Shown here one piece after another: positions 21,561 through 32,837 of a DNA stretch of 64,000 nucleotides. A model generated the notes under the pieces. That model was not told the DNA's origin. It saw nothing but the letters and a program-made list of their open reading frames with translations, and did no database searches. How positions within the stretch are numbered: the stretch's first letter is position 1; each line of letters starts with the position of its first letter. Source of the DNA: Eubacteriales bacterium (lineage in GTDB: Bacteria > Bacillota > Clostridia > Oscillospirales > CAG-272); assembly GCA_045127235.1 (NCBI GenBank), contig JBGVPY010000079.1:4471-68470 (forward strand). The letters run 5' to 3'. The position numbers and the translations under genes are program-made.

Positions 21561-24500
21561 ATGGAGCTTATTGACAATAAGTCCAAATTATTGGGCGATG
21601 ATTTACAAAAAGAGATTAAGCAGGGTGCCAAACTTAAAATGGTAGCATCCTATTTTTCCATATACGCTTTTGAGGCATTAAAGGAAGAATTAACAAGTGT
21701 TGAAGAGCTTCAATTTATATTCCCGTCCCCAACATTTGTAAAACAGGGAATAAAGGATAACATTAAGAAAGAAACAAGAGAATACTACATACCAAAGCAT
21801 ATGAGAGAAACCTCTCTTTATGGTACTGAATTTGAAATTAGACTTCGTAATCAATTAACTCAAAAGGTTATAGCTCGTGAGTGTGCTGAATGGATAAAAG
21901 AAAAGGTTGCATTTAAGTCCAATATAACAACAAATGTCATGCCAAACTTTATTCATCTTGATAATAACGGAAATGAAATAGCATATACCGGTATAAACGG
22001 TTTTACTGCATCCGATTTAGGTTATGAGAAGAACAATATGATGTTCCAAGGCATAGCTAAGGTTGACGAAGGCTATGCAAAGTTTTTCTTTAACCAATTT
22101 AAGAATGTGTGGGATGATGATAGTAAGCTTGAAGATGTAACCCAAGCCATTGTTGACTATATTTCTTCTGCATACGAGGATAATGCACCGGAATTTATCT
22201 ATTTTGTAACCTTATATAACATTTTTAGTGAGTTCCTTGACGATATAATGTCTGAGGACTATATGCCAAATGAAGGGACAGGATATAAAAATTCAATTGT
22301 ATGGAATAAGCTATTTAATTTCCAACGAGATGGAGCAGTAGGCGTAATTCAAAAGCTTGAAAAATATAACGGTTGTATTCTCGCTGACTCTGTTGGTCTT
22401 GGTAAAACATTTACTGCACTTGCAGTTATGAAGTATTACGCTTCAAGAAATAAGAACATTCTTGTTTTGACACCAAAGAAACTTTCAAACAACTGGAATA
22501 AGTACAGAGATAACGTGAAAACAAATCTTTTCTATCAAGATAGAATACATTTCGACGTGCTTTATCATACCGATTTAGGAAGGAAAAAGGGCTATTCAAA
22601 CGGACACGACCTAAGAAACTTTAACTGGGACAATTATGACTTGATTGTTATTGATGAATCACATAATTTCCGTAACGATAAGAGTTTTAGAGATAGAGAA
22701 ACAAGATATCAATTCTTGCTTGAAAAGGTTTTAAAGAGTGGTGTTAGAACGAAGGTTCTTATGTTATCTGCTACACCTGTAAATAATAGATTTTCAGATC
22801 TTAAAAATCAGCTCCAGCTCGCTTATGGCGACAATTATGCTGAATTTAATGAGCGCCTTGATACTTCAAAGACAGTAGAAGTTATTTTGACAAATGCACA
22901 AAGAATCTTTAATGAGTGGACTAAGCTTCCAAAGGAAGAAAGAAAAGCAGCAGATTTAATGTCTAAGCTCGATATTGACTTTTCAATCTTGCTTGATAAC
23001 GTAACAATAGCACGAAGCAGAAAGCATATTACAAAGTATTATGATACATCTGAAATAGGCAAGTTTCCAACAAGACTAAAGCCTGTATCCTACTATTGCG
23101 ATATCGGTAAAAAAGAGGATGTCCTTGAGTATAACGATATTTTCAATACACTTATGGGACTAACTATGGGCGTTTATGCGCCTATGGACTATGTTTTACC
23201 AAGCAGAATGTCTAAATATGAAGAGTTGTACGATACAAAGGTAGGTAAATCAACACTTAAGCAGTTTAACCGTGAAAAAGCACTTCAACGCTTAATGACA
23301 ATTAACATATTGAAGCGTCTTGAATCTTGTGTTGATTCATTTAGAATTACTGTTCGTAAGCTTCTTGAAAGCAACCGTAAAACACTTGAATCAATCCTCG
23401 AGTATGAAAGAAACAAAGTTCTTCACTCGATGGAATTTAGTCAAATTGATGAAGATGATTTTGATAACGACGACTTTGATTTAACGAATGAAAGCACACT
23501 TGGTAAAGTCAAGATTGACTTTGCTGATATGGATCTGCTTTCTTGGAAGAGAGATTTAAAAAAGGATATAGAAACACTTGAAATACTTCACGATATTATG
23601 GCGTTTGTAACTCCTGATAAGGACTTAAAGCTGCAAAAGTTAATTGAAGTTATCGAAAATAAGATTAAAAATCCGATCAACCCGGGTAATAGAAAGGTTC
23701 TTGTTTTTTCTGCATTTGCTGATACAACTAACTACCTTTACGAGAATCTTTCAAAGTTCATGCTTAATAAGTATGGCATTTATTCTGCTAGAATTCAAGG
23801 CGCACAAAAGGGTAATGCTACAAATGTATCAGGTAGCAACGAAACTGATAGACTTTTAACTTTGTTCTCGCCGATTTCAAAAGAGAGAAACCAAACATAT
23901 GCAGAGGATAAAGAAATTGAAATAGACTTACTTATTGCAACAGACTGCGTATCAGAAGGTCAAAACTTGCAGGACTGCGATGTATGTATCAACTATGATA
24001 TTCACTGGAATCCAGTTCGTATTGTTCAACGTTTTGGTAGAATAGACCGTATCGGTAGTAAGAATGATTATGTTCAGCTAATTAACTTCTGGCCTAACGT
24101 ATCACTTGATGAATATATCAATCTTAATGCCAGGGTTGAAAGCAGAATGACTTTAGTTGACGCAACCGCAACAGGTGATGATAATATTATCGCAAGTGAG
24201 CAAGCCGACCTTGATTATAGAAAAGAACAGTTACAAAAACTTCAAGACGGTGATTTGCAGGACCTTGAAGATGTTGATGGCAGTATAACCATTACTGACT
24301 TGGGACTCAATGAGTTTAGAATGGATGTTGTTTCTTATATTAAGGAACACGGAGAGCCTAAAAACATTGCAAATGGCTTGTACGCAGTTGTATCCCATGA
24401 CGATGAAGCGGAAATACCAAAGGGCGTAATTTACGTTCTTAAAAACCGTAATCCTGATGTTAATATAGGAAAGCAAAATAGACTCCATCCATATTATTTG

Positions 24501-24818
24501 GTATATCTTGACGAAAACGGACAAGTTATAAATACCCATATGGAAGTTAAAAAAATACTTGATATTTTGCGTAAGACCTGTAAGCACCATAAAGAGCCTA
24601 TAGCAGATTTGTGCAGAGTCTTTAACAAAGAAACCAAAGACGGATACAAGATGGATAAGTACAGTAAATTGCTTGATAAAACAATAGAGTCAATTCTTGA
24701 TGTTAAGGAGCAAAACGACCTCGATTCACTTTTCAATCTTGGCTCAGATGTATTGTTTGGTAATAATATTAAGGGTATTGACGACTTTGAACTAATAACT
24801 TTTGTAGTAGTTAAGTAG
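21561..24818 (+). CDS. SNF2-type SF2 helicase/ATPase with degenerate PLD-like N-terminal domain
   Basis: ILADSVGLGKT, VIDESHNF, LSATP, ATDCVSEGQNLQD, WNPVRIVQRFGRIDRIG; N-terminal VASYFS..GINGFT resembles a PLD-like fold without HxK. Confidence 0.85.
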   Translation: MELIDNKSKLLGDDLQKEIKQGAKLKMVASYFSIYAFEALKEELTSVEELQFIFPSPTFVKQGIKDNIKKETREYYIPKHMRETSLYGTEFEIRLRNQLTQKVIARECAEWIKEKVAFKSNITTNVMPNFIHLDNNGNEIAYTGINGFTASDLGYEKNNMMFQGIAKVDEGYAKFFFNQFKNVWDDDSKLEDVTQAIVDYISSAYEDNAPEFIYFVTLYNIFSEFLDDIMSEDYMPNEGTGYKNSIVWNKLFNFQRDGAVGVIQKLEKYNGCILADSVGLGKTFTALAVMKYYASRNKNILVLTPKKLSNNWNKYRDNVKTNLFYQDRIHFDVLYHTDLGRKKGYSNGHDLRNFNWDNYDLIVIDESHNFRNDKSFRDRETRYQFLLEKVLKSGVRTKVLMLSATPVNNRFSDLKNQLQLAYGDNYAEFNERLDTSKTVEVILTNAQRIFNEWTKLPKEERKAADLMSKLDIDFSILLDNVTIARSRKHITKYYDTSEIGKFPTRLKPVSYYCDIGKKEDVLEYNDIFNTLMGLTMGVYAPMDYVLPSRMSKYEELYDTKVGKSTLKQFNREKALQRLMTINILKRLESCVDSFRITVRKLLESNRKTLESILEYERNKVLHSMEFSQIDEDDFDNDDFDLTNESTLGKVKIDFADMDLLSWKRDLKKDIETLEILHDIMAFVTPDKDLKLQKLIEVIENKIKNPINPGNRKVLVFSAFADTTNYLYENLSKFMLNKYGIYSARIQGAQKGNATNVSGSNETDRLLTLFSPISKERNQTYAEDKEIEIDLLIATDCVSEGQNLQDCDVCINYDIHWNPVRIVQRFGRIDRIGSKNDYVQLINFWPNVSLDEYINLNARVESRMTLVDATATGDDNIIASEQADLDYRKEQLQKLQDGDLQDLEDVDGSITITDLGLNEFRMDVVSYIKEHGEPKNIANGLYAVVSHDDEAEIPKGVIYVLKNRNPDVNIGKQNRLHPYYLVYLDENGQVINTHMEVKKILDILRKTCKHHKEPIADLCRVFNKETKDGYKMDKYSKLLDKTIESILDVKEQNDLDSLFNLGSDVLFGNNIKGIDDFELITFVVVK

Positions 24819-24839
24819 GGTATAGGATACAGGAGATAG
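24816..24839 (+). repeat. Degenerate 7-nt-periodic AGG-rich repeat (left arm)
   Basis: TAGGGTA TAGGATA CAGGAGA TAG; starts with the helicase stop codon and contains the SD of the next gene. Confidence 0.6.
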
Positions 24840-24841
24840 TG

Positions 24842-25195
24842 ATGGATTGTTATGAGGATTTGATAGTTTGGCAAAAATCAATGGATTTAGTGAAACAAAT
24901 TTATGATATTATTGATGCTTTACCAAATGAGGAAAAATACGCTTTAGCAGATCAAATGCGAAGAAGTGTAGTTTCAATTCCTTCTAATATAGCTGAAGGA
25001 TATGAAAGAGAATCCACAAAAGAATATATTCAATTTTTATCAATAGCAAATGGTTCAAAAGCAGAACTATTGACACAACTTGAAATTTGTAAAATGCTTG
25101 GATATATTGACGATATATCAAATGCAAAGTCGCTTTGCGACGAAGTTGGAAAGATGATCAGTTCCATTATCAAAAAATTAAAGCAGAAACTTTAG
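24842..25195 (+). CDS. Four-helix-bundle protein (23S rRNA intervening-sequence protein family)
   Basis: LIVWQKSMDL, LADQMRRSVVSIPSNIAEG, FLSIANGSKAEL, 117 aa; SD AGGAG at 24831-24835. Confidence 0.9.
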   Translation: MDCYEDLIVWQKSMDLVKQIYDIIDALPNEEKYALADQMRRSVVSIPSNIAEGYERESTKEYIQFLSIANGSKAELLTQLEICKMLGYIDDISNAKSLCDEVGKMISSIIKKLKQKL

Positions 25196-25276
25196 AAAGG
25201 AAAATGCAAGGCGAAAGACAGTTAGTAAAGAGAGGAAAAGAGGAGAAAATTTCATTAGTTTAGAGTGAAAAAACAC

Positions 25277-25325
25277 CACCTAACCCCTAACTCCTAACTC
25301 CTAACTCCTAACTCCTTGCCCCTAA
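25277..25325 (+). repeat. Tandem heptamer repeat, 7 units, consensus CTCCTAA (right arm)
   Basis: CACCTAA CCCCTAA CTCCTAA CTCCTAA CTCCTAA CTCCTTG CCCCTAA, then C and ATG. Confidence 0.95.
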
Positions 25326-25326
25326 C

Positions 25327-25959
25327 ATGATAAACTTTAGCACGAAAACAGAGGTTAATAAACCCTTTAAGTTAACAGACTTGTATAAACAAATGAATGC
25401 AACTAAAGAAGCAAAAAAAGAAGCCGCTTGTATTGATAAGGTTATACTTAAAAATGTTCTGTCTCCAAATACGCTTTATTGTGAACCGCAAAAAAGTGTA
25501 AAAGAGATTTATGTGTTTGAAGTAACTGTAAATATACAAACTGTACCTGGGCTTTTTATCAAAGAGCTTGATAATAGTATAAAGCTACATACTCTGTTTG
25601 TAATCAAGTATGAAAATCTTGAAATTATGATGCTTTCGTATAAAGCTGCAACATTTAAAGGTAAGTATTGGCAAACCAACTGGGAGCAAAGAATGAGCTA
25701 TGATGTTCCGCTTGTAAACAGTGTGCCGGAGCTATACAAATTCATCCTTTCAAAGTTTTTGAAATATCCACCATTTGAAAGCGAAGATGTAGAAGAGTAT
25801 GTTAAGAGAAATAACGCTTTAAATAAGCTTGATTTTCAAATATCAAAAACAGAGAGTGCAATAGCATACGAAACACAATCAAAGAAGCGATTTGAGTACA
25901 ATGCAAGGCTCAAACAGTATAAAGAAGAACGAGAAAATTTACTAAGAGAGGTAAAATAA
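25327..25959 (+). CDS. DUF4391-like protein
   Basis: Size (210 aa), KTEVNK start, KEIYVFEV, helical C-terminus (ETQSKKRFEYNARLKQYKEE) and position between SNF2 helicase and Type III mod. Confidence 0.65.
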   Translation: MINFSTKTEVNKPFKLTDLYKQMNATKEAKKEAACIDKVILKNVLSPNTLYCEPQKSVKEIYVFEVTVNIQTVPGLFIKELDNSIKLHTLFVIKYENLEIMMLSYKAATFKGKYWQTNWEQRMSYDVPLVNSVPELYKFILSKFLKYPPFESEDVEEYVKRNNALNKLDFQISKTESAIAYETQSKKRFEYNARLKQYKEERENLLREVK

Positions 25960-27846
25960 ATGGCTGACAAACTAGATATGAAATCTATGAATATAGCCGA
26001 GGATAATGTTAAAAAATTAGGAGCATTATTCCCAAATGTTGTTACCGAAGTTATGGATGAAAATGGCAGCTTTAAGTTTGCTGTAGATTTTGATGCTCTT
26101 AAGCAAGAGTTATCAAATAATTTAATAAACGAAAAGCAAGAAAGATATCAGATGACTTGGCCCGATAAAAGTCAAGCTAAAGTGCTTGCTAATTCACGTA
26201 TTACAGCTACATTGCGACCTGACGTTGAAAAAAGCGTGAATTTTGATACCACGAAGAACTTATATATTGAGGGGGACAACCTTGATGTGTTAAAGCTACT
26301 TCGTGAGACATATCTTAACAAAATTAAATTAATTTACATAGACCCGCCATACAATACCGGTAAGGATAGCTTTGTGTATGATGACGATTTTGCTATATCG
26401 GCGGACGATTATTCTAAAATAAGCGGAGAATATGACGAGATAGGCAACAGAATTGTTAAAAATCTTGACAGTAATGGCAGGTTCCATACAGATTGGCTCA
26501 ATATGATGTATCCCAGATTAAAAATTGCACGCGATTTGCTTACCGATGATGGTATGATTTTCATTAGCATTGATGACAATGAGTTTGATAATTTAAAGAA
26601 AATGTGTGATGAAATTTTTGGTGCGTCAAATTATGTTGCGATGTTTGTTTGGAAAAGTAAAAGTGGCGGTGCAAATGACAGTAATCTAGTTGCGGTCGAC
26701 CATGAATACATTTTGATGTATGCAAAAAATATTGAAAAAGCATCCACAAATTTAATTGCATATACCGAAGAATTAGAAACTTTATATACAGGCAAGGATG
26801 AACATTTTGAAGAAAGAGGTCCTTACCGACCTATGCTTCTACAACAAAAAGGTCTCAGCTTTTCTAAATCATTAACATATGAAATCGAAGCTCCAGATGG
26901 CAGTATTTTAGTACCGGAAAGCGGTGGCGCAATATGGAGATGGAGCAAGGAAAAGTTTATTGAAGCCAAAAAGAATGGATTTGTTGAGTTCAGAAAAGTT
27001 GGCGACATGTACAAGGTTTATACTAAACAGTATCTATACGTAGATTATGATGGTAATAAAATCGAACGCGGTAAGCTTATAAGAACCGTTATTGATGATA
27101 TTGACGGCAGACTTGGCACTAAATATTTACAAACTATCTTTGAAAATAAAGTGTTTACTAACTCAAAACCTGTTGAGCTTATAAAACAATTTATTTATGT
27201 TGCTACCAATAAGAATGACTATGTATTAGACTTTTTTAGTGGCTCTGCAACTACAGCGCATGCTGTTATGCAATTAAATGCAGAGGATAATGGTAACCGT
27301 AAATTTATTTTAATTCAAATACCTGAAAATTGTGATGTAAAATCTGAAGCTTATAAAGCAGGGTATAAGACTATTTGCGAAATAGGCGAGGAACGAATAC
27401 GTAGAACAGGCAAAAAGCTTGCAAAAGAAAATGATATTGATGTTGGATTCAGAGTATTAAAGCTTGATTCATCGAATATGAATGATGTTTATTATAATCC
27501 TACTGCGTTTAACCAAAGTATGCTTGATATGACTGTTGACAATGTAAAAGCAGACAGAACACCACTTGATTTGTTGTTCCAAGTTATGCTTGACTTAGGT
27601 GTAGAGCTTTCTGCCGATATAGTTGAAAAAACTGTAAACGGAAAGAAAATTTATGCAGTAAACGTCAACGACTTAATTGCTTGCTTTGATAATGATATCG
27701 ACAATGATGTTATTACAGCGATAGCAAAAGAAAATCCGCTATACGCAGTATTTAAAGATAATTCCTTCGCAACTGATAGTGCTGGTATAAACAACGAACA
27801 ATTATTTAAAACTTACTCGCCATCAACAGTAGTCAAGGTAATATAA
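25960..27846 (+). CDS. mod: Type III restriction-modification methyltransferase Mod, copy 1
   Basis: NLYIEGDNL, IYIDPPYNTG, FISIDDNE, central TRD, LDFFSGSATTAHAV. Confidence 0.93.
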   Translation: MADKLDMKSMNIAEDNVKKLGALFPNVVTEVMDENGSFKFAVDFDALKQELSNNLINEKQERYQMTWPDKSQAKVLANSRITATLRPDVEKSVNFDTTKNLYIEGDNLDVLKLLRETYLNKIKLIYIDPPYNTGKDSFVYDDDFAISADDYSKISGEYDEIGNRIVKNLDSNGRFHTDWLNMMYPRLKIARDLLTDDGMIFISIDDNEFDNLKKMCDEIFGASNYVAMFVWKSKSGGANDSNLVAVDHEYILMYAKNIEKASTNLIAYTEELETLYTGKDEHFEERGPYRPMLLQQKGLSFSKSLTYEIEAPDGSILVPESGGAIWRWSKEKFIEAKKNGFVEFRKVGDMYKVYTKQYLYVDYDGNKIERGKLIRTVIDDIDGRLGTKYLQTIFENKVFTNSKPVELIKQFIYVATNKNDYVLDFFSGSATTAHAVMQLNAEDNGNRKFILIQIPENCDVKSEAYKAGYKTICEIGEERIRRTGKKLAKENDIDVGFRVLKLDSSNMNDVYYNPTAFNQSMLDMTVDNVKADRTPLDLLFQVMLDLGVELSADIVEKTVNGKKIYAVNVNDLIACFDNDIDNDVITAIAKENPLYAVFKDNSFATDSAGINNEQLFKTYSPSTVVKVI

Positions 27847-27858
27847 GAAGGTGTTAAA

Positions 27859-29727
27859 ATGGCTGAAAAATTAGATATGAAATCTATGAATATAACTGAG
27901 GATAACGTTAAAAAGATTCAAGCATTGTTCCCAAATGTAGTAACTGAAATAATGGATGAAGATGGCAAATTTAAACTTGCCATTGATTTTGACGCACTCA
28001 AACAAGAGTTATCAAATGATTTAATAAGCGAAAAGCAAGAAAGATATCAAATGACTTGGCCTGACAAAAGCAAGGCTAAGCTTTTAGCCAACTCTCGTAT
28101 TTCAGCAACTTTACGCCCAGATAAAGAGAAGAGCGTAAACTTTGATACAACTAAAAATCTTTATATCGAAGGCGATAACCTTGATGTATTAAAGCTTCTC
28201 CGTGAAACATATCTTGGTAAAATCAAAATGATTTACATAGATCCGCCTTATAATACAGGCAATGACTTTGTTTATGAAGATGATTTTGCTATGTCAGTTG
28301 ATGAATATTCAGATATTAGTGGAGAATATGACGAGCAAGGCAATAGACTGGTAAAAAATCTTGATAGCAATGGTCGTTTTCATACTGATTGGTTAAATAT
28401 GATTTACCCAAGATTAAAGGTCGCAAGAGATTTGCTTGCGGAAGATGGTGTGATTTTTATCTCCATTGACGAAAATGAAATTGAAAACTTAAAGAAAATT
28501 GCATCGGAAGTTTTTGGTGAGCAAAATTTTGTTGGAGCAGTTATTTGGGAGAGAGCTTTTGCCCCCAAAAACGATGCGAAATATTTTTCTGATAGCCACG
28601 ACTATATAGTAGTATATGCTAAAACTTTGGAATCTTTCGAAATAGGTCTTTTACCCAGAACAGAGGAAGCTAATGCGAGATATAAAAATCCGGATAATGA
28701 TCCTCGCGGACCGTGGACTCCGGACAATATGACTGTAAAAACTTATAGTGCTTCGTATGACTACGAAATCGTTACTCCAAGCGGAACTGTCGTAAAACCA
28801 ACAGATGGAAGATGTTGGTTTACAAGCAAGGAAAGAATGCAGAAGCTCATAAGTGATGGAAGAGTGTGGTTTGGAGAAAGCGGAAGCAACATGCCACGCT
28901 TGAAAAGATATTTAGCAGATGTTCAACAAGGTATGACTGCAACAACTATATGGAAATACACCGATGTCGGTCATAATCAAGAAGGCAGACAGGAAGTAAA
29001 AAAGCTCTTTAGTGATAAGGGATACTTTGACGGTCCTAAGCCTTTACGTTTGCTGGGGAGAATTCTACAAATAGCAAACACAAACAAGGATTCAATTATT
29101 CTTGACTTTTTCTCCGGTTCCGCAACAACCGCACACGCAGTTATGCAATTGAATGCTGAAGATGATGGTAATCGTAAATTTATTATGGTTCAATTGCCTG
29201 AAAAGTGTGAGGAAAAATCTGAAGCATACAAAGCAGGTTATAAGACTATTTGCGATATAGGTGAGGAACGAATTAGAAGAGCTGGCAAGAAGATTATAGA
29301 AGAAACAGGCAAGGATATTGATATTGGATTTAGAGTATTAAAGCTTGATTCTTCAAATATGAATGATGTTTACTATAATCCAAATGCCTTTAACCAAAGT
29401 ATGCTTGATATGACTGTTGATAATGTAAAAGCAGACAGAACACCACTTGATTTGTTGTTCCAAGTTATGCTTGATTTAGGCGTTGAGCTTTCTGCTGATA
29501 TAGTTGAAAAGACAGTAAACGGAAAGAAAATCTATGCAGTTAATGGCAACGACTTAATTGCTTGCTTTGATAATGATATTGACAATGATGTTATAACATC
29601 AATAGCAACAGAAAAGCCACTATATGCAGTATTTAAGGATAAGTCCTTCTCATCCGACAGTGTCGGTATAAATAATGAACAATTGTTCAAAACTTACTCG
29701 CCATCAACAGTTGTAAAGGTAATATAG
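27859..29727 (+). CDS. mod: Type III restriction-modification methyltransferase Mod, copy 2 (different TRD)
   Basis: NLYIEGDNL, IYIDPPYNTG, FISIDENE, FDGPKP, LDFFSGSATTAHAV. Confidence 0.93.
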   Translation: MAEKLDMKSMNITEDNVKKIQALFPNVVTEIMDEDGKFKLAIDFDALKQELSNDLISEKQERYQMTWPDKSKAKLLANSRISATLRPDKEKSVNFDTTKNLYIEGDNLDVLKLLRETYLGKIKMIYIDPPYNTGNDFVYEDDFAMSVDEYSDISGEYDEQGNRLVKNLDSNGRFHTDWLNMIYPRLKVARDLLAEDGVIFISIDENEIENLKKIASEVFGEQNFVGAVIWERAFAPKNDAKYFSDSHDYIVVYAKTLESFEIGLLPRTEEANARYKNPDNDPRGPWTPDNMTVKTYSASYDYEIVTPSGTVVKPTDGRCWFTSKERMQKLISDGRVWFGESGSNMPRLKRYLADVQQGMTATTIWKYTDVGHNQEGRQEVKKLFSDKGYFDGPKPLRLLGRILQIANTNKDSIILDFFSGSATTAHAVMQLNAEDDGNRKFIMVQLPEKCEEKSEAYKAGYKTICDIGEERIRRAGKKIIEETGKDIDIGFRVLKLDSSNMNDVYYNPNAFNQSMLDMTVDNVKADRTPLDLLFQVMLDLGVELSADIVEKTVNGKKIYAVNGNDLIACFDNDIDNDVITSIATEKPLYAVFKDKSFSSDSVGINNEQLFKTYSPSTVVKVI

Positions 29728-29738
29728 GTTGGTAGATT

Positions 29739-32700
29739 ATGAAATTTAAATTTAAAATACAACAATATCAGTCAGATGCGGTAAATGCAATAGCTGATGT
29801 ATTCCAAGGACAACCATATAGTGAACATAATAAATACACTATTGATATGGGTGAAGTAACTAAGCCCTCTGCTCAAATTTCAATGTTTGATGATGGTGCA
29901 GGTAAGGCTGTCCTTAGTGATATTTATAATGATGATATTGGTTTTGCAAATAGCAGAATAGAGCTATCAAGAGATATGCTATTAAATAACATAAGAAATA
30001 TACAGTCCCTTTCCAACATCAATGAGTCAGCAACATTGTGCCACAGCCTTGGTGCAGTTGACCTTGACGTTGAAATGGAAACTGGTACGGGTAAAACTTA
30101 TGTTTACATAAAAACAATGTTTGAACTTAATAAGCGTTATGGCTTTAGTAAGTTCATTGTTGTTGTGCCATCAATAGCTATTCGTGAAGGTGTTAAGAAG
30201 TCCTTTGAAATGACACAAGAACACTTTATGGATACCTATGGTAAGAAGGCTCGTTTCTTTATATATAACTCAAAAAAGCTTGATGAAATAGAACAATTCT
30301 CAAGCTCAAGTGCAATAAATGTTATGATTATTAACATTCAGGCTTTTAGTTCTAAAGGTGCAGATGCTAAAAGAATTTATGAAGAGCTTGACGAATTCCA
30401 ATCAAGAAGACCTATTGACGTTATTGCAAAGAATAATCCAATCTTAATTCTTGATGAACCACAAAGAATGGGCGGCGAAGCAGCACAAGTGTCTTTAAAA
30501 AGATTTAATCCGCTTTTCTCAATCAACTTTTCAGCAACTCACAGAACACAACATAACTTAATTTATGTTTTAGACGCGTTAGATGCTTATAATAAGCGAC
30601 TTGTAAAAAAAATACAGGTAAAGGGCTTCACGATTAAAAATCTTCGTGGAACTAACGGATATTTGTATTTACAAGATATCCTTATTGCGCCAAATAAACC
30701 GCCAAGAGCAAAGATAGAGTTTGAAATTGCATTTAAGAGTGGTAAAGTAAACAGAGAAACCAGAATACTTGATGTTGCAGATAATCTTTATCAAGCTTCA
30801 AACGAAATGGAGCAGTATAAGGACGGCTATGTTATTAGTGAAATAAGTCCCGAAAGAGGAACTGTAACGTTCATTAATGGTGAAGTTATTGAACTTGGAA
30901 CTGCTTATGGTGACGTGTCCGAGATGGATATAAGAAGAGTACAAATTAGAGAAACAATTCGTTCTCACTTTGAGAAGGAAGAGGAAATGTATAATAAAGG
31001 AATTAAGGTATTGTCCTTGTTCTTTATTGACGAGGTTGCTAAATATAGACAATACGATGAAGATGGAAATGAAGTAAACGGTGTTTACGGCAAAATATTT
31101 GAAGAAGAATATATAAATGTTTTTAACGATTATATGACAATGCTCGATACACCATATACTGCGTTCCTTAAATCAACCGACCCATCTAAAGCTCACCAAG
31201 GCTATTTTTCAATAGATAAAAAAGGTCGTAAGGTTGACTCCACTACAAGTAAAAACAGCGATATTTCTGACGATGTATCAGCTTATGACTTGATTTTAAA
31301 GGATAAGGAAAGACTTTTGTCATTTGAAGAGCCAACAAGATTTATTTTCTCTCACTCTGCATTAAGAGAAGGTTGGGATAATCCTAATGTATTCCAAATT
31401 TGCACATTGAAGCATAGTGCTAACAATGTTCAGCGCCGACAGGAAGTAGGTCGTGGACTCAGACTTTGTGTTAATAGCACTGGTGAAAGAATGGATGCAA
31501 CAATTCCAAACTTTGATGTTCATTCTATAAACGTACTAACCGTTGTAGCAAATGACTCATATGAGGATTTCGTTAAGGGACTTCAAACTGAGCTTAAAGA
31601 AAATATGTACGAGCGTCCTAAGAGAGCAACAAAAGAATTCTTTGCTGGAAAGGTTGTTAAGATTAACGGTACTGAAACAACAATTACAACGCAGCAGGCA
31701 AGAAACATCTATGTTTATTTGATTACTAATCAATATCTTGATAATGATGATAAGCCAAATCAAGACTACAAAAATGCAGTAGCAGCAGGTACACTTGCAC
31801 CTTTACCGGAAGAATTGTTCCCACTTACCGAGGTTGTTCATCAACTTGTTCGTTCAACATATGAAAATGTTGAAATTCAAATTGAAAACGGTAATAAGGT
31901 TAAGATGCAGGATAACGCACTTAATGAAAATTTTAATAAGAAAGAGTTCCAAGCACTTTGGAATTTGATTAACCATAAGTACGCTTATACTGTTGAATTT
32001 GACTCCAAGGAGCTTATTGACAATTCAATTAAGGCAATTGATAAGGAGCTTTTTGTAACTCAATTAACTTATACAGTATCAACAGGTGAACAAAAATCAA
32101 ATATTGATGCCGAGCAAGTTAATAACTCTATGTCCTTTAATACCGCAAAGACAAAGACGGATGTTATAAGAACCGCAGCAAGTGATACAATTAAGTATGA
32201 TTTGCTTGGTAAAATCGTTGCTCAAACCTTGTTAACAAGGCAGACAGTAGCGACAATATTAAAGGGCATTAGTCCTATCAAATTCAATATGTATTCACAA
32301 AATCCAGAGGACTTTATAAATAAGGTATCAAAGATAATCAATGAGCAAAAGGCTGACATTATAGTTGACCATGTAACCTATAATATGATTGACGGTTCAT
32401 TTGATGCGAGTATTTTTACAGAGTCCAAAATGAGTATGGAATACAAGCTTGCATTCAAAGCAGAGAAGCATATTAAGGATTATGTTTTTGTTGATGGTAT
32501 AAATAAAATTGATTCAATAGAGCGTAACTTTGCAGCCGAGCTTGATAATGCAAGTGAAGTATGCGTATATGCTAAGCTTCCAAGAGGATTTTATATTCCT
32601 ACACCAGTAGGTAATTACAGTCCAGACTGGGCGATTGCCTTTAATGAAGGCACAGTAAAGCATATTTACTTTGTTGCTGAAACAAAGGGCAGCCTATCAA

Positions 32701-32837
32701 CCGCACAACTTAAAAAAGTTGAAGTTGCAAAAATAGAGTGTGCAAAAGCACTTTATAACAAAATGTCCAATAGCAAAGTCCGCTACGAGCATATAACCAA
32801 TTATACCGACTTACTTAATAATATGAATAAAATATAG
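29739..32837 (+). CDS. res: Type III restriction enzyme Res subunit
   Basis: VEMETGTGKT, ILDEPQ, LREGWDNPNVFQIC, QEVGRGLRL; C-terminal YSPDWAI..VAETKG PD-(D/E)xK nuclease. Confidence 0.93.
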   Translation: MKFKFKIQQYQSDAVNAIADVFQGQPYSEHNKYTIDMGEVTKPSAQISMFDDGAGKAVLSDIYNDDIGFANSRIELSRDMLLNNIRNIQSLSNINESATLCHSLGAVDLDVEMETGTGKTYVYIKTMFELNKRYGFSKFIVVVPSIAIREGVKKSFEMTQEHFMDTYGKKARFFIYNSKKLDEIEQFSSSSAINVMIINIQAFSSKGADAKRIYEELDEFQSRRPIDVIAKNNPILILDEPQRMGGEAAQVSLKRFNPLFSINFSATHRTQHNLIYVLDALDAYNKRLVKKIQVKGFTIKNLRGTNGYLYLQDILIAPNKPPRAKIEFEIAFKSGKVNRETRILDVADNLYQASNEMEQYKDGYVISEISPERGTVTFINGEVIELGTAYGDVSEMDIRRVQIRETIRSHFEKEEEMYNKGIKVLSLFFIDEVAKYRQYDEDGNEVNGVYGKIFEEEYINVFNDYMTMLDTPYTAFLKSTDPSKAHQGYFSIDKKGRKVDSTTSKNSDISDDVSAYDLILKDKERLLSFEEPTRFIFSHSALREGWDNPNVFQICTLKHSANNVQRRQEVGRGLRLCVNSTGERMDATIPNFDVHSINVLTVVANDSYEDFVKGLQTELKENMYERPKRATKEFFAGKVVKINGTETTITTQQARNIYVYLITNQYLDNDDKPNQDYKNAVAAGTLAPLPEELFPLTEVVHQLVRSTYENVEIQIENGNKVKMQDNALNENFNKKEFQALWNLINHKYAYTVEFDSKELIDNSIKAIDKELFVTQLTYTVSTGEQKSNIDAEQVNNSMSFNTAKTKTDVIRTAASDTIKYDLLGKIVAQTLLTRQTVATILKGISPIKFNMYSQNPEDFINKVSKIINEQKADIIVDHVTYNMIDGSFDASIFTESKMSMEYKLAFKAEKHIKDYVFVDGINKIDSIERNFAAELDNASEVCVYAKLPRGFYIPTPVGNYSPDWAIAFNEGTVKHIYFVAETKGSLSTAQLKKVEVAKIECAKALYNKMSNSKVRYEHITNYTDLLNNMNKI

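Follow-up and report, generated by a model that had tools for sequence, protein, structure and literature searches.

A four-helix-bundle gene between inverted heptamer arrays in a type III restriction-modification operon, a probable counterpart of the ORF-bearing 23S rRNA intervening sequences

Introduction

A 64,000-nucleotide (nt) stretch of DNA from a Eubacteriales bacterium (GenBank assembly GCA_045127235.1, contig JBGVPY010000079.1, positions 4,471 to 68,470), here called the window, carries a type III restriction-modification operon in which a small four-helix-bundle gene of the 23S rRNA intervening sequence (IVS) protein family is wedged between an SNF2-type helicase gene and a DUF4391 gene, with 7-nt repeats in inverted orientation on its two sides. 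Do the gene and the repeats belong together, and how does such a package come to stand in a defense operon? The function of the "23S rRNA IVS protein" and the origin of the rRNA IVSs have been open for about 30 years, and this locus shows the same package of gene plus stem in an ordinary operon. The original prediction for the locus, made from the window alone, described a compact and possibly mobile "mRNA intervening sequence" and knew of no earlier description. The latter is right only in part, since the Coxiella 23S IVS, with a four-helix ORF and tandem heptamers in its stem (PMC4990558), and genome-wide inverted heptamer arrays (PMC4692102) are both in print. We compared the locus with orthologous junctions, with relatives of the four-helix gene, and with the rest of the window's genome. 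In our reading, to which we give a probability of about two in three, positions 24816 to 25326 are a discrete cassette, consisting of a PF05635/TIGR02436 gene in inverted heptamer arrays, and the counterpart in a protein-coding operon of the 23S rRNA IVSs that bear an open reading frame (ORF).

Empty and filled junctions delimit an insert

The 117-amino-acid (aa) product of the gene matches PF05635 over profile positions 1 to 105 of 106 (E value of 3e-40, 137 bits, cut-off of 33.8) and TIGR02436 with 137.1 bits (cut-off of 24), and by these profiles it is a full-length member of the family. The nearest solved structure by sequence is the pentameric XCC0516 (PDB 2gsc; E value of 1e-23 over residues 4 to 110). 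The model of bAvd, PF22296, also matches the protein (E value of 2e-10); the NCBIfam Avd model gives 36.5 bits, under its cut-off of 80. Between the window and an Oscillospiraceae metagenome-assembled genome (SVRP01000005.1; labeled G241 here), nonsynonymous divergence (dN) of the gene is 0.19, with synonymous sites saturated (proportion of synonymous differences, 0.8 to 0.9). Purifying selection thus acts on the four-helix gene, as judged from its codons.

We collected orthologous helicase-DUF4391 junctions from metagenome contigs and one family genome; among species-representative genomes, a close DUF4391 was found in only 2 of 301 from the family, and about 400 from the order held none besides the window's own. 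In the 16 empty junctions sampled, the helicase stop codon is followed by 8 to 19 nt containing GGAG or a close variant and then by the ATG of the DUF4391 gene, with the GGAG 5 to 8 nt upstream of the ATG. The empty junction of locus L203, whose DUF4391 protein is 90% identical to that of the window, reads TAG GAGGAATA ATG, with an 8-nt spacer; L206 reads TAA GGAGAAGGA ATG and L015 reads TAA GAGAAAGGAGACAGA ATG. These orthologues are the empty sites expected of a compact insert, and the comparison identifies positions 24816 to 25326 (about 510 nt) as an insert that replaces a spacer bearing a Shine-Dalgarno (SD) sequence. A string in L015 and L016, AGGAGACAGA, resembles an arm unit and was rejected as a remnant, being within what SD-rich spacers give.

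Four lineages have filled junctions: the clade of the window (with L014, L204/L205, and L220 to L223), G241, L224 to L226, and L035, the last in a distant operon with a DUF4391 only 36% identical. In all four, the cassette begins at or inside the helicase stop codon. At its other end, it reaches 1 to 3 nt before the ATG in the window clade and G241, with no SD left, stops just short of a retained spacer, AAAGGAGAACC ATG, in L224 to L226, and precedes GAGGTTTCTC ATG in L035. Filled and empty junctions compared in this way showed no duplicated target bases and no convincing target-site duplication or deletion scar. The four-helix gene is the sole ORF, and arms differ between copies in one genome, which sets the cassette apart from transposons and miniature inverted-repeat transposable elements.

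The flanking tracts are heptamer arrays

The 3' array consists of the units CACCTAA, CCCCTAA, three times CTCCTAA, CTCCTTG, and CCCCTAA, followed by one C and the ATG of the DUF4391 gene, and it places TAA in all three frames. Tandem Repeats Finder reports it at 25279 to 25316 with period 7, 5.4 copies, and a score of 69. With at least three tandem units, an intergenic position between co-oriented ORFs, and many copies per genome, it is a heptanucleotide array in the published sense. Its units fall outside the G-quadruplex subclass, which needs G tracts of at least three, as AGGAGTT and CCTAACT have GG only, except for the CCCCTAA variants.

The 5' tract opens with the helicase stop codon as its first triplet. 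Taken alone, it has no significant 7-nt periodicity (13 of 21 lag-7 matches, inside the control range); judged by its relatives, it is a worn array. In L204, L220, and L223, the 5' arm is longer by exactly one heptamer (AGGAGAT, TAGATAG, and AGGAGTT, respectively), and G241 has a clear 14/7-nt array at this position, GGAGTTAGGATACA repeated 3.5 times. The 3' array has 7 copies in the window, about 10 in L204, and 12 in L014. Aligned alleles therefore show the arrays changing by whole heptamers. The AGGAGTT-type 5' arm and the AACTCCT-type 3' arm belong to one heptamer family.

Rereading confirmed the basic observations behind the original prediction, namely, the stop codon opening an AGG tract, the seven CTCCTAA-type units, the ATG without SD, and 17 of 24 Watson-Crick pairs (no G-U) when 24816 to 24839 is set antiparallel to 25324 to 25301. 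The duplex has a calculated free energy (dG) of -25.3 kcal/mol, which none of 3,176 other 40-nt windows equals against the 3' array (best, -23.9). The excess over chance is genuine yet small, for an AGG tract of the SD type will always find some pairing with CUCCU repeats. A purine-rich tract before the 3' array had been proposed as a rival pairing partner. It turned out to be a lineage-specific insertion of 46 nt, present in the window and L220 to L223 and absent from L014 and L204/L205, and its roughly 11 predicted pairs with the proximal 3'-array units coexist with the arm-arm stem and do not displace the 5' arm.

The junction has changed state repeatedly, and the cassette has spread or been exchanged as a unit

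On a maximum-likelihood tree of 23 DUF4391 proteins (7 from filled and 16 from empty junctions), the filled sites form three groups, each beside an empty junction, and the basal lineage, L022/L023, is empty. A single filled clade was rejected by the approximately unbiased test (P = 3.6e-42), as was joining even two of the groups (P = 3e-5). Presence or absence at this junction has therefore changed at least three times, going by the tree. Three to four gains, compared with at least nine precise losses, are far more parsimonious; the direction of change is not proven.

Close alleles point to recent spread or exchange. Between the window and L204, the four-helix genes differ at 5 of 354 nt (synonymous divergence [dS], 0.045) and the DUF4391 genes at 76 of 570 (dS, 0.69; Fisher P = 6.6e-12), so that by dS the cassette is younger than its flanks by a factor of about 15; the helicase tails are 87 to 92% identical. 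Identity shifts no more than 8 nt from the stop codon and no more than 15 nt past the DUF4391 ATG. In L223, the four-helix gene has 4 differences in 354 nt and the helicase tail 31 in 400, and in L014 all 47 available cassette bases match the window beside a DUF4391 dS of about 1. Co-conversion tracts beside the cassette are lacking on the left and at most 15 nt long on the right. With identity limited to the cassette and borders at the arms, the cassette has spread or been exchanged recently as a unit between diverged alleles, and the alignments thus show gene and arms traveling together. The guess that the insert is mobile gains from both the separate filled lineages and the youth of the cassette.

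The four-helix genes of the window, G241, L025, L026, and L035 form a clade (Shimodaira-Hasegawa-like approximate likelihood ratio support, 95) spread over at least three genomic contexts, and four of these five members have AGGAGTT-type arms. A shared clade with shared arm type indicates that the arms are inherited along with the gene.

Relatives in other phyla have inverted arrays

We examined the 200-nt upstream and downstream flanks of 74 four-helix relatives with enough flank (41 to 75% identity; Bacillota, Fibrobacterota, Spirochaetota, Bacteroidota, Planctomycetota, Nitrospirota, one archaeon, and others) together with 140 shifted controls. Complementarity was scored by local alignment against these controls, since the energies from ViennaRNA duplexfold on 200-nt flanks were implausibly large. 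Inverted complementarity between the flanks exceeded all 140 controls in 48 of the 74, as foreseen for relatives across phyla, and direct repeats in the same flanks were not enriched. A period-7 array was found in a flank of 36 relatives (7 of 140 controls), period 8 in 8 (0 of 140), and period 9 in 4 (1 of 140). The period (7, 8, or 9) and the unit track the protein tree. Host junctions include thiolase-dehydrogenase, groES-groEL, carA-carB, rfb, and glgA. Of 36 cassettes, 23 have the upstream stop codon between -25 and +10 nt relative to the outer edge of the 5' arm, and 30 have the next start no more than 40 nt from the 3' arm, usually with its own SD.

Arms of 8-nt units occur at L087, L059, L071, L073, L084, L089, L093, L096, and L100, and arms of 9-nt units at L067, L080, L081, and L099; the Ignavibacteriota carA-carB cassettes use 9-mers. 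The arms at L087, from a planctomycete, are about 143 nt long with 127 Watson-Crick pairs.

The 2.74-Mb genome of the window (G000) has 176 period-7 arrays (6.4 per 100 kb), mostly of GTGGTCA, GACGGCT, and CGTTAGC units; 169 lie outside ORFs of at least 120 aa, and 112 of the 152 that could be classified lie between codirectional genes. Many pair up in inverted orientation around loops of about 100 nt that contain no gene. Each of the three subfamily-1 four-helix genes in this genome has arrays on both sides; at the window and at L003 they are inverted, and at L001 they are direct. Across G000 and samples of 65 to 140 kb from 17 family genomes (loci L104 to L202), genomes with more PF05635 genes tend to have a higher density of period-7 arrays (Spearman coefficient, 0.53; P = 0.023; n = 18), a weak correlation from small samples that ignores kinship. 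The six sampled genomes lacking a PF05635 gene have no period-7 array save one T-rich run.

Predicted pairing of the arms in the transcript

The minimum free energy (MFE) and centroid folds of 24800 to 25340 both join the arms (z score, -2.3), as had been anticipated, and the partition function gives 15 to 19 expected arm-arm pairs at any flank length. The AGGAG of the four-helix gene is predicted to be paired with a probability of about 0.96, in line with the proposed sequestration by the CUCCU units, and is freed when a ribosome footprint is forced at the helicase stop. In G241, the MFE and centroid folds pair the arms as well. In both, despite saturated synonymous sites, the stem starts at the stop codon and closes with a triplet 2 nt short of the AUG; these basal triplets differ by a double compensatory change, UAG/CUA in the window and UGA/UCA in G241. 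The start of the DUF4391 gene has the worst anti-SD energy of 34 long ORFs in the window (+1.4 kcal/mol), and the other five genes of the operon have -5.7 to -8.7 kcal/mol.

Rfam has no rRNA or other family within 24500 to 25600, its one notable hit elsewhere being a subthreshold match to Gut-1 before another four-helix gene, and the scan for terminators found none between the genes. Promoter-like sites are not enriched (31 found, 24 expected), with none in 25196 to 25326 and one 10/12 match inside the four-helix ORF (25080 to 25108); a cryptic promoter for the DUF4391 gene is neither supported nor excluded.

From these predictions, a sequence of events can be proposed. In the operon transcript, the arms would pair and hold an interior of about 460 nt as a loop, which would set the helicase stop about 2 nt from the DUF4391 AUG and hide the SD of the four-helix gene. 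A ribosome finishing the helicase gene would melt the outer half of the stem, and translation of the four-helix gene, perhaps also that of the SD-less DUF4391 gene, would thereby become coupled to that of the helicase. By comparison with the Coxiella IVS, the stem may also be a target of RNase III. The arms could equally serve as a DNA hairpin during insertion or loss.

Points against the cassette and alternative explanations

Several observations weigh against our reading of the locus as a discrete IVS-like cassette. The four-helix genes of the three filled groups are 67 to 74% identical and thus about as diverged as the operons (DUF4391, about 70%), which leaves room for an old insertion followed by many precise losses. 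Identity limited to the cassette could come from gene conversion between alleles that were already filled. The stem of the window is weak, at 17 of 24 pairs and an energy just past the best chance partner, and arm pairing, cleavage, and coupling are predictions. An SD is kept after the 3' arm in L224 to L226 and L035, so that SD-less coupling appears to be a local feature. No recombinase, nuclease, or target-site duplication was seen. Finally, over 53 stems with 1,730 Watson-Crick pairs, mismatches show no RNA-specific signature: sense G-U pairs number 67 and antisense G-U pairs (sense A-C) 86 (P = 0.15). As long-term selection on a sense RNA helix should yield an excess of sense G-U, its lack weighs against a purely RNA-level reading.

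This symmetry of mismatches leads to the strongest alternative, which we judge a serious possibility at clearly less than even odds: the arms act as DNA, extruding as a hairpin or cruciform when the DNA is single-stranded or supercoiled, this structure is recognized or exploited for insertion, exchange, and precise loss, and any RNA stem is a tolerated by-product. Strict Watson-Crick pairs occupy 87% of stem positions, and the antisense duplex of the arms is more stable than the sense duplex both in the window (-34.3 and -25.3 kcal/mol, respectively) and in G241 (-40.5 and -32.8 kcal/mol). A DNA-level role of the arms, or their constant renewal by DNA processes, would fit the mismatch and duplex numbers at least as well. 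The alternative also accommodates whole-unit changes of the arrays, as in replication slippage, the sharp borders of the exchanged tract at the arms, and the cassette at L025, which lies at the 3' end of a gene facing a convergent gene, outside any operon junction. However, the cassette is co-oriented with its neighbors in all five relatives read (G241, L025, L026, L204, and L224), the upstream stop lies near the 5' arm in most of the cassettes surveyed, and the SD of the four-helix gene sits inside that arm; the positions of stop and SD suggest adaptation to transcripts. The related rRNA IVSs are processed as RNA (PMC4990558), and no DNA-acting enzyme is linked to the cassette.

The original prediction went furthest in proposing that the stem has been taken over by the operon, so that it restores helicase-DUF4391 coupling and the four-helix protein regulates its own synthesis. 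Taken as a whole, we find this model unlikely. The DUF4391 gene has no SD in the window, L014, L204, L220, and G241, against an SD in all empty sites, and it is nevertheless intact and constrained (dN of 0.25, dS saturated); the stem base sets the stop codon 2 nt from the AUG in two filled lineages, with the compensatory change described above. An unrelated cassette, L048, has the same geometry of stop, stem, and ATG with no SD, and in L224 to L226 the stem base would reunite the native stop, spacer, and ATG. Against this, the supposed proximity depends on the base of the stem, which a ribosome standing at the stop codon has to melt, and the sense-strand G-U signature was not found. Most cassettes keep an SD after the 3' arm, and SD-less coupling through the stem is not supported as a general design by these junctions. 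Looping-out in the mRNA that restores coupling is a reasonable inference from the folding models for two of the four filled lineages.

A single ancestral insertion followed by many precise deletions, with no present mobility and with the low divergence of the cassette due to gene conversion among filled alleles, seems to us quite unlikely. Besides the divergence between filled groups, it can draw on the deletion-prone nature of hairpin-flanked inserts and on the operon being a recombination mosaic, in which L204 and L014 are 95 to 98% identical over window positions 25660 to 25870 and about 85% identical elsewhere. Yet every one of the losses counted above would have to be independent and precise and to leave a working SD spacer, and simple deletion from the filled sequence does not yield the empty spacers. 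The basal lineage is empty, and the four-helix gene of G241 groups with that of L025, located in another genomic context. Coincidence, in which a four-helix gene merely happens to lie between two generic arrays, is close to refuted: although only 7 of the many period-7 arrays in G000 are near four-helix genes, the chance that a given gene is flanked at both ends by arrays less than about 150 nt away is about 1e-4 (estimated from array density), all three subfamily-1 genes have arrays on both sides, the AGGAGTT unit is rare in G000, G241 keeps its arms although no period-7 array in a 152-kb sample of its genome passes the thresholds, and inverted arms recur in relatives from other phyla.

Comparison with known systems

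The cassette most resembles the ORF-bearing 23S IVSs of Coxiella burnetii and Leptospira (Warrier et al. 2016, PMC4990558). In C. burnetii, an S23p ORF lies in a 28-bp stem with the SD in the arm, RNase III excises the sequence, and tandem GACAGAT heptamers are present in two to three copies, the number varying among strains (PMC4990558). The cassette shares the PF05635/TIGR02436 family, the ORF inside terminal inverted repeats, the variable number of heptamers in the 5' arm upstream of the ORF, and the SD in the arm. It also shares the sporadic presence at one homologous site of the rRNA IVSs, which are regarded as selfish. It differs in lying between protein-coding genes of a defense operon and not in an rRNA helix, in its imperfect arms (17 of 24 pairs compared with 28 bp), and in a gene that is under purifying selection and not decaying; excision by RNase III, if it took place in the mRNA, would sever the operon. 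With the structure of an IVS but not the rRNA location, we class the cassette as a variant of the IVS and not as a member.

Gene-less heptanucleotide arrays are known from Xanthomonas (GGGAATC) and Nostoc (GGGGAYT) (PMC4692102) and as Geobacter elements (PMC2700814), and Xanthomonas has 70 to 75 convergent heptamer-array pairs per genome with no link to the four-helix family (PMC4692102, PMC2700814). The arms of the cassette resemble them in tandem 7-nt units, mostly in 3 to 10 copies, between co-oriented ORFs near stop codons, with frequent convergent inverted pairs and variable copy number (Rehm et al. 2015). The published arrays are gene-less, with G-quadruplexes discussed; the units of the cassette have only GG, and they enclose a gene. 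Outside the Coxiella IVS study, our literature search found no paper joining the four-helix family with heptamer repeats, and the locus connects two literatures that do not cite each other, on genome-wide heptamer repeats and on four-helix-bundle genes.

Homing elements (group I introns, inteins, and free-standing homing endonuclease genes) share with the cassette a population-genetic signature, namely, one site in homologous genes, presence and absence that alternate among close relatives, a divergence far below that of the flanks, and exact borders. Unlike them, the cassette encodes no endonuclease or splicing activity, shows no flank co-conversion tract, and lies between genes. Repetitive extragenic palindromic (REP) sequences and REPINs with their REP-associated tyrosine transposase (RAYT) offer another parallel, with short dispersed intergenic inverted-repeat hairpins that sometimes flank a dedicated small protein gene. 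The four-helix protein, by comparison, has no known catalytic motif, and the arms vary within a genome and have no conserved terminal sequence.

A homologous four-helix-bundle fold is found in bAvd, which accompanies diversity-generating retroelements as an accessory protein and forms a nucleic-acid-binding pentamer. By analogy, the repeats of the cassette may be bound by its own protein. Neither a reverse transcriptase nor a template/variable repeat pair, as go with bAvd, is found near the cassette. A wider idea, which we offer tentatively and hold to be on the doubtful side, is that PF05635 genes and phased inverted arrays of 7- to 9-nt units are a self-propagating two-part system homing into stop-start junctions of transcribed operons, with the 23S IVS as a special case. 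The toroidal four-helix protein would recognize the arrays, as RAYT does REP, and would seed or maintain gene-less arrays, and here the stem would have been co-opted to translate an SD-less gene.

Filled and empty close alleles together with a young cassette are the population signature of an active, site-preferring mobile element without a recognizable enzyme. The locus offers a defined 510-nt element, an 8-nt empty target (as in L203), and natural arm variants that differ by whole heptamers. For annotation, cassettes of this kind would account for many small genes called "four helix bundle protein" that are squeezed in between the genes of operons, and such inserts can strip the next gene of its SD without inactivating it.

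Host operon and other heptamer elements

The host locus (Table 1) has two Mod genes and a Res gene, preceded by the helicase and DUF4391 genes, and is thereby a type III restriction-modification locus; the gene order is repeated in G241 and in L211 to L217.

Table 1. Features of the cassette and its host operon (window positions)
Feature	Position	Strand	Evidence or remark
SNF2-type helicase gene, 1,085 aa, upstream neighbor	21561..24818	+	Pfam Helicase_C, SNF2-rel_dom, ResIII; PADLOC C3a139 "HKD+Snf2," E value of 3e-114; stop TAG at 24816-24818
5' arm, worn heptamer array TAGGGTA TAGGATA CAGGAGA TAG	24816..24839	+	Holds helicase stop and four-helix SD AGGAG (24831-24835)
Four-helix-bundle protein gene, 117 aa, 23S rRNA IVS protein family	24842 (ATG)..25195	+	PF05635, TIGR02436
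Purine-rich 46-nt stretch, 3' untranslated part of cassette	25233..25278	+	Lineage-specific insertion
3' arm, seven CTCCTAA-type heptamers	25277..25325	+	Ends 1 nt 5' of DUF4391 ATG
DUF4391 gene, 210 aa, downstream neighbor	25327..25959	+	PF14335, E value of 1e-18; start without SD
Two type III Mod methyltransferase genes	25960-27846, 27859-29727	+	PADLOC MTase_III, E values of 9e-221 and 2e-243; Pfam N6_N4_Mtase
Type III Res gene	29739-32837	+	PADLOC REase_III, E value of 2e-298; Pfam ResIII, RE_endonuc

The two tandem Mod genes (628 and 622 aa; 25960 to 29727) each match one PADLOC MTase_III model from end to end. The DUF4391-Mod junction is a second variable spot in the orthologous operons and is empty in the window. 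There, L209 has a SieB-like gene (PF14163), L217 has an AbiTii gene (PF18864), and L214 and L224 have unassigned genes of 292 and 261 aa, respectively. In L223, a metagenome allele with the cassette, a stop codon splits the 3' part of the helicase gene (positions 2 to 727) into ORFs of 140 and 92 aa, and this helicase may be a pseudogene.

Other four-helix genes of the window's genome have repeats of their own. At L001 (contig C83 of G000, 93786 to 97103, minus strand), a DUF559-like gene of 120 aa and a four-helix gene stand in tandem with a TGACAGC/TGACCGC array after each, and the array, SD, and start region are duplicated as a direct repeat (54 nt at 87% and 25 nt at 96%). At L005 to L007, four to eight short hairpins with differing stems lie 100 to 250 nt upstream of second-subfamily four-helix genes, spaced by a constant motif (ATTTCAT, AAATGA, and AGCTAAATT). 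L004 carries a gene-less ATTCATT heptamer hairpin in this upstream position; the fold z score is -5.4 for L007 and L004. These loci, L004 to L007, are on contigs C3, C95, C15, and C34 of G000, with L006 and L007 directly after tRNA genes. Upstream of the four-helix gene of L007, positions 1303 to 1377 match the orphan Gut-1 RNA motif (RF01706) with 44.2 bits, below the cut-off of 50.

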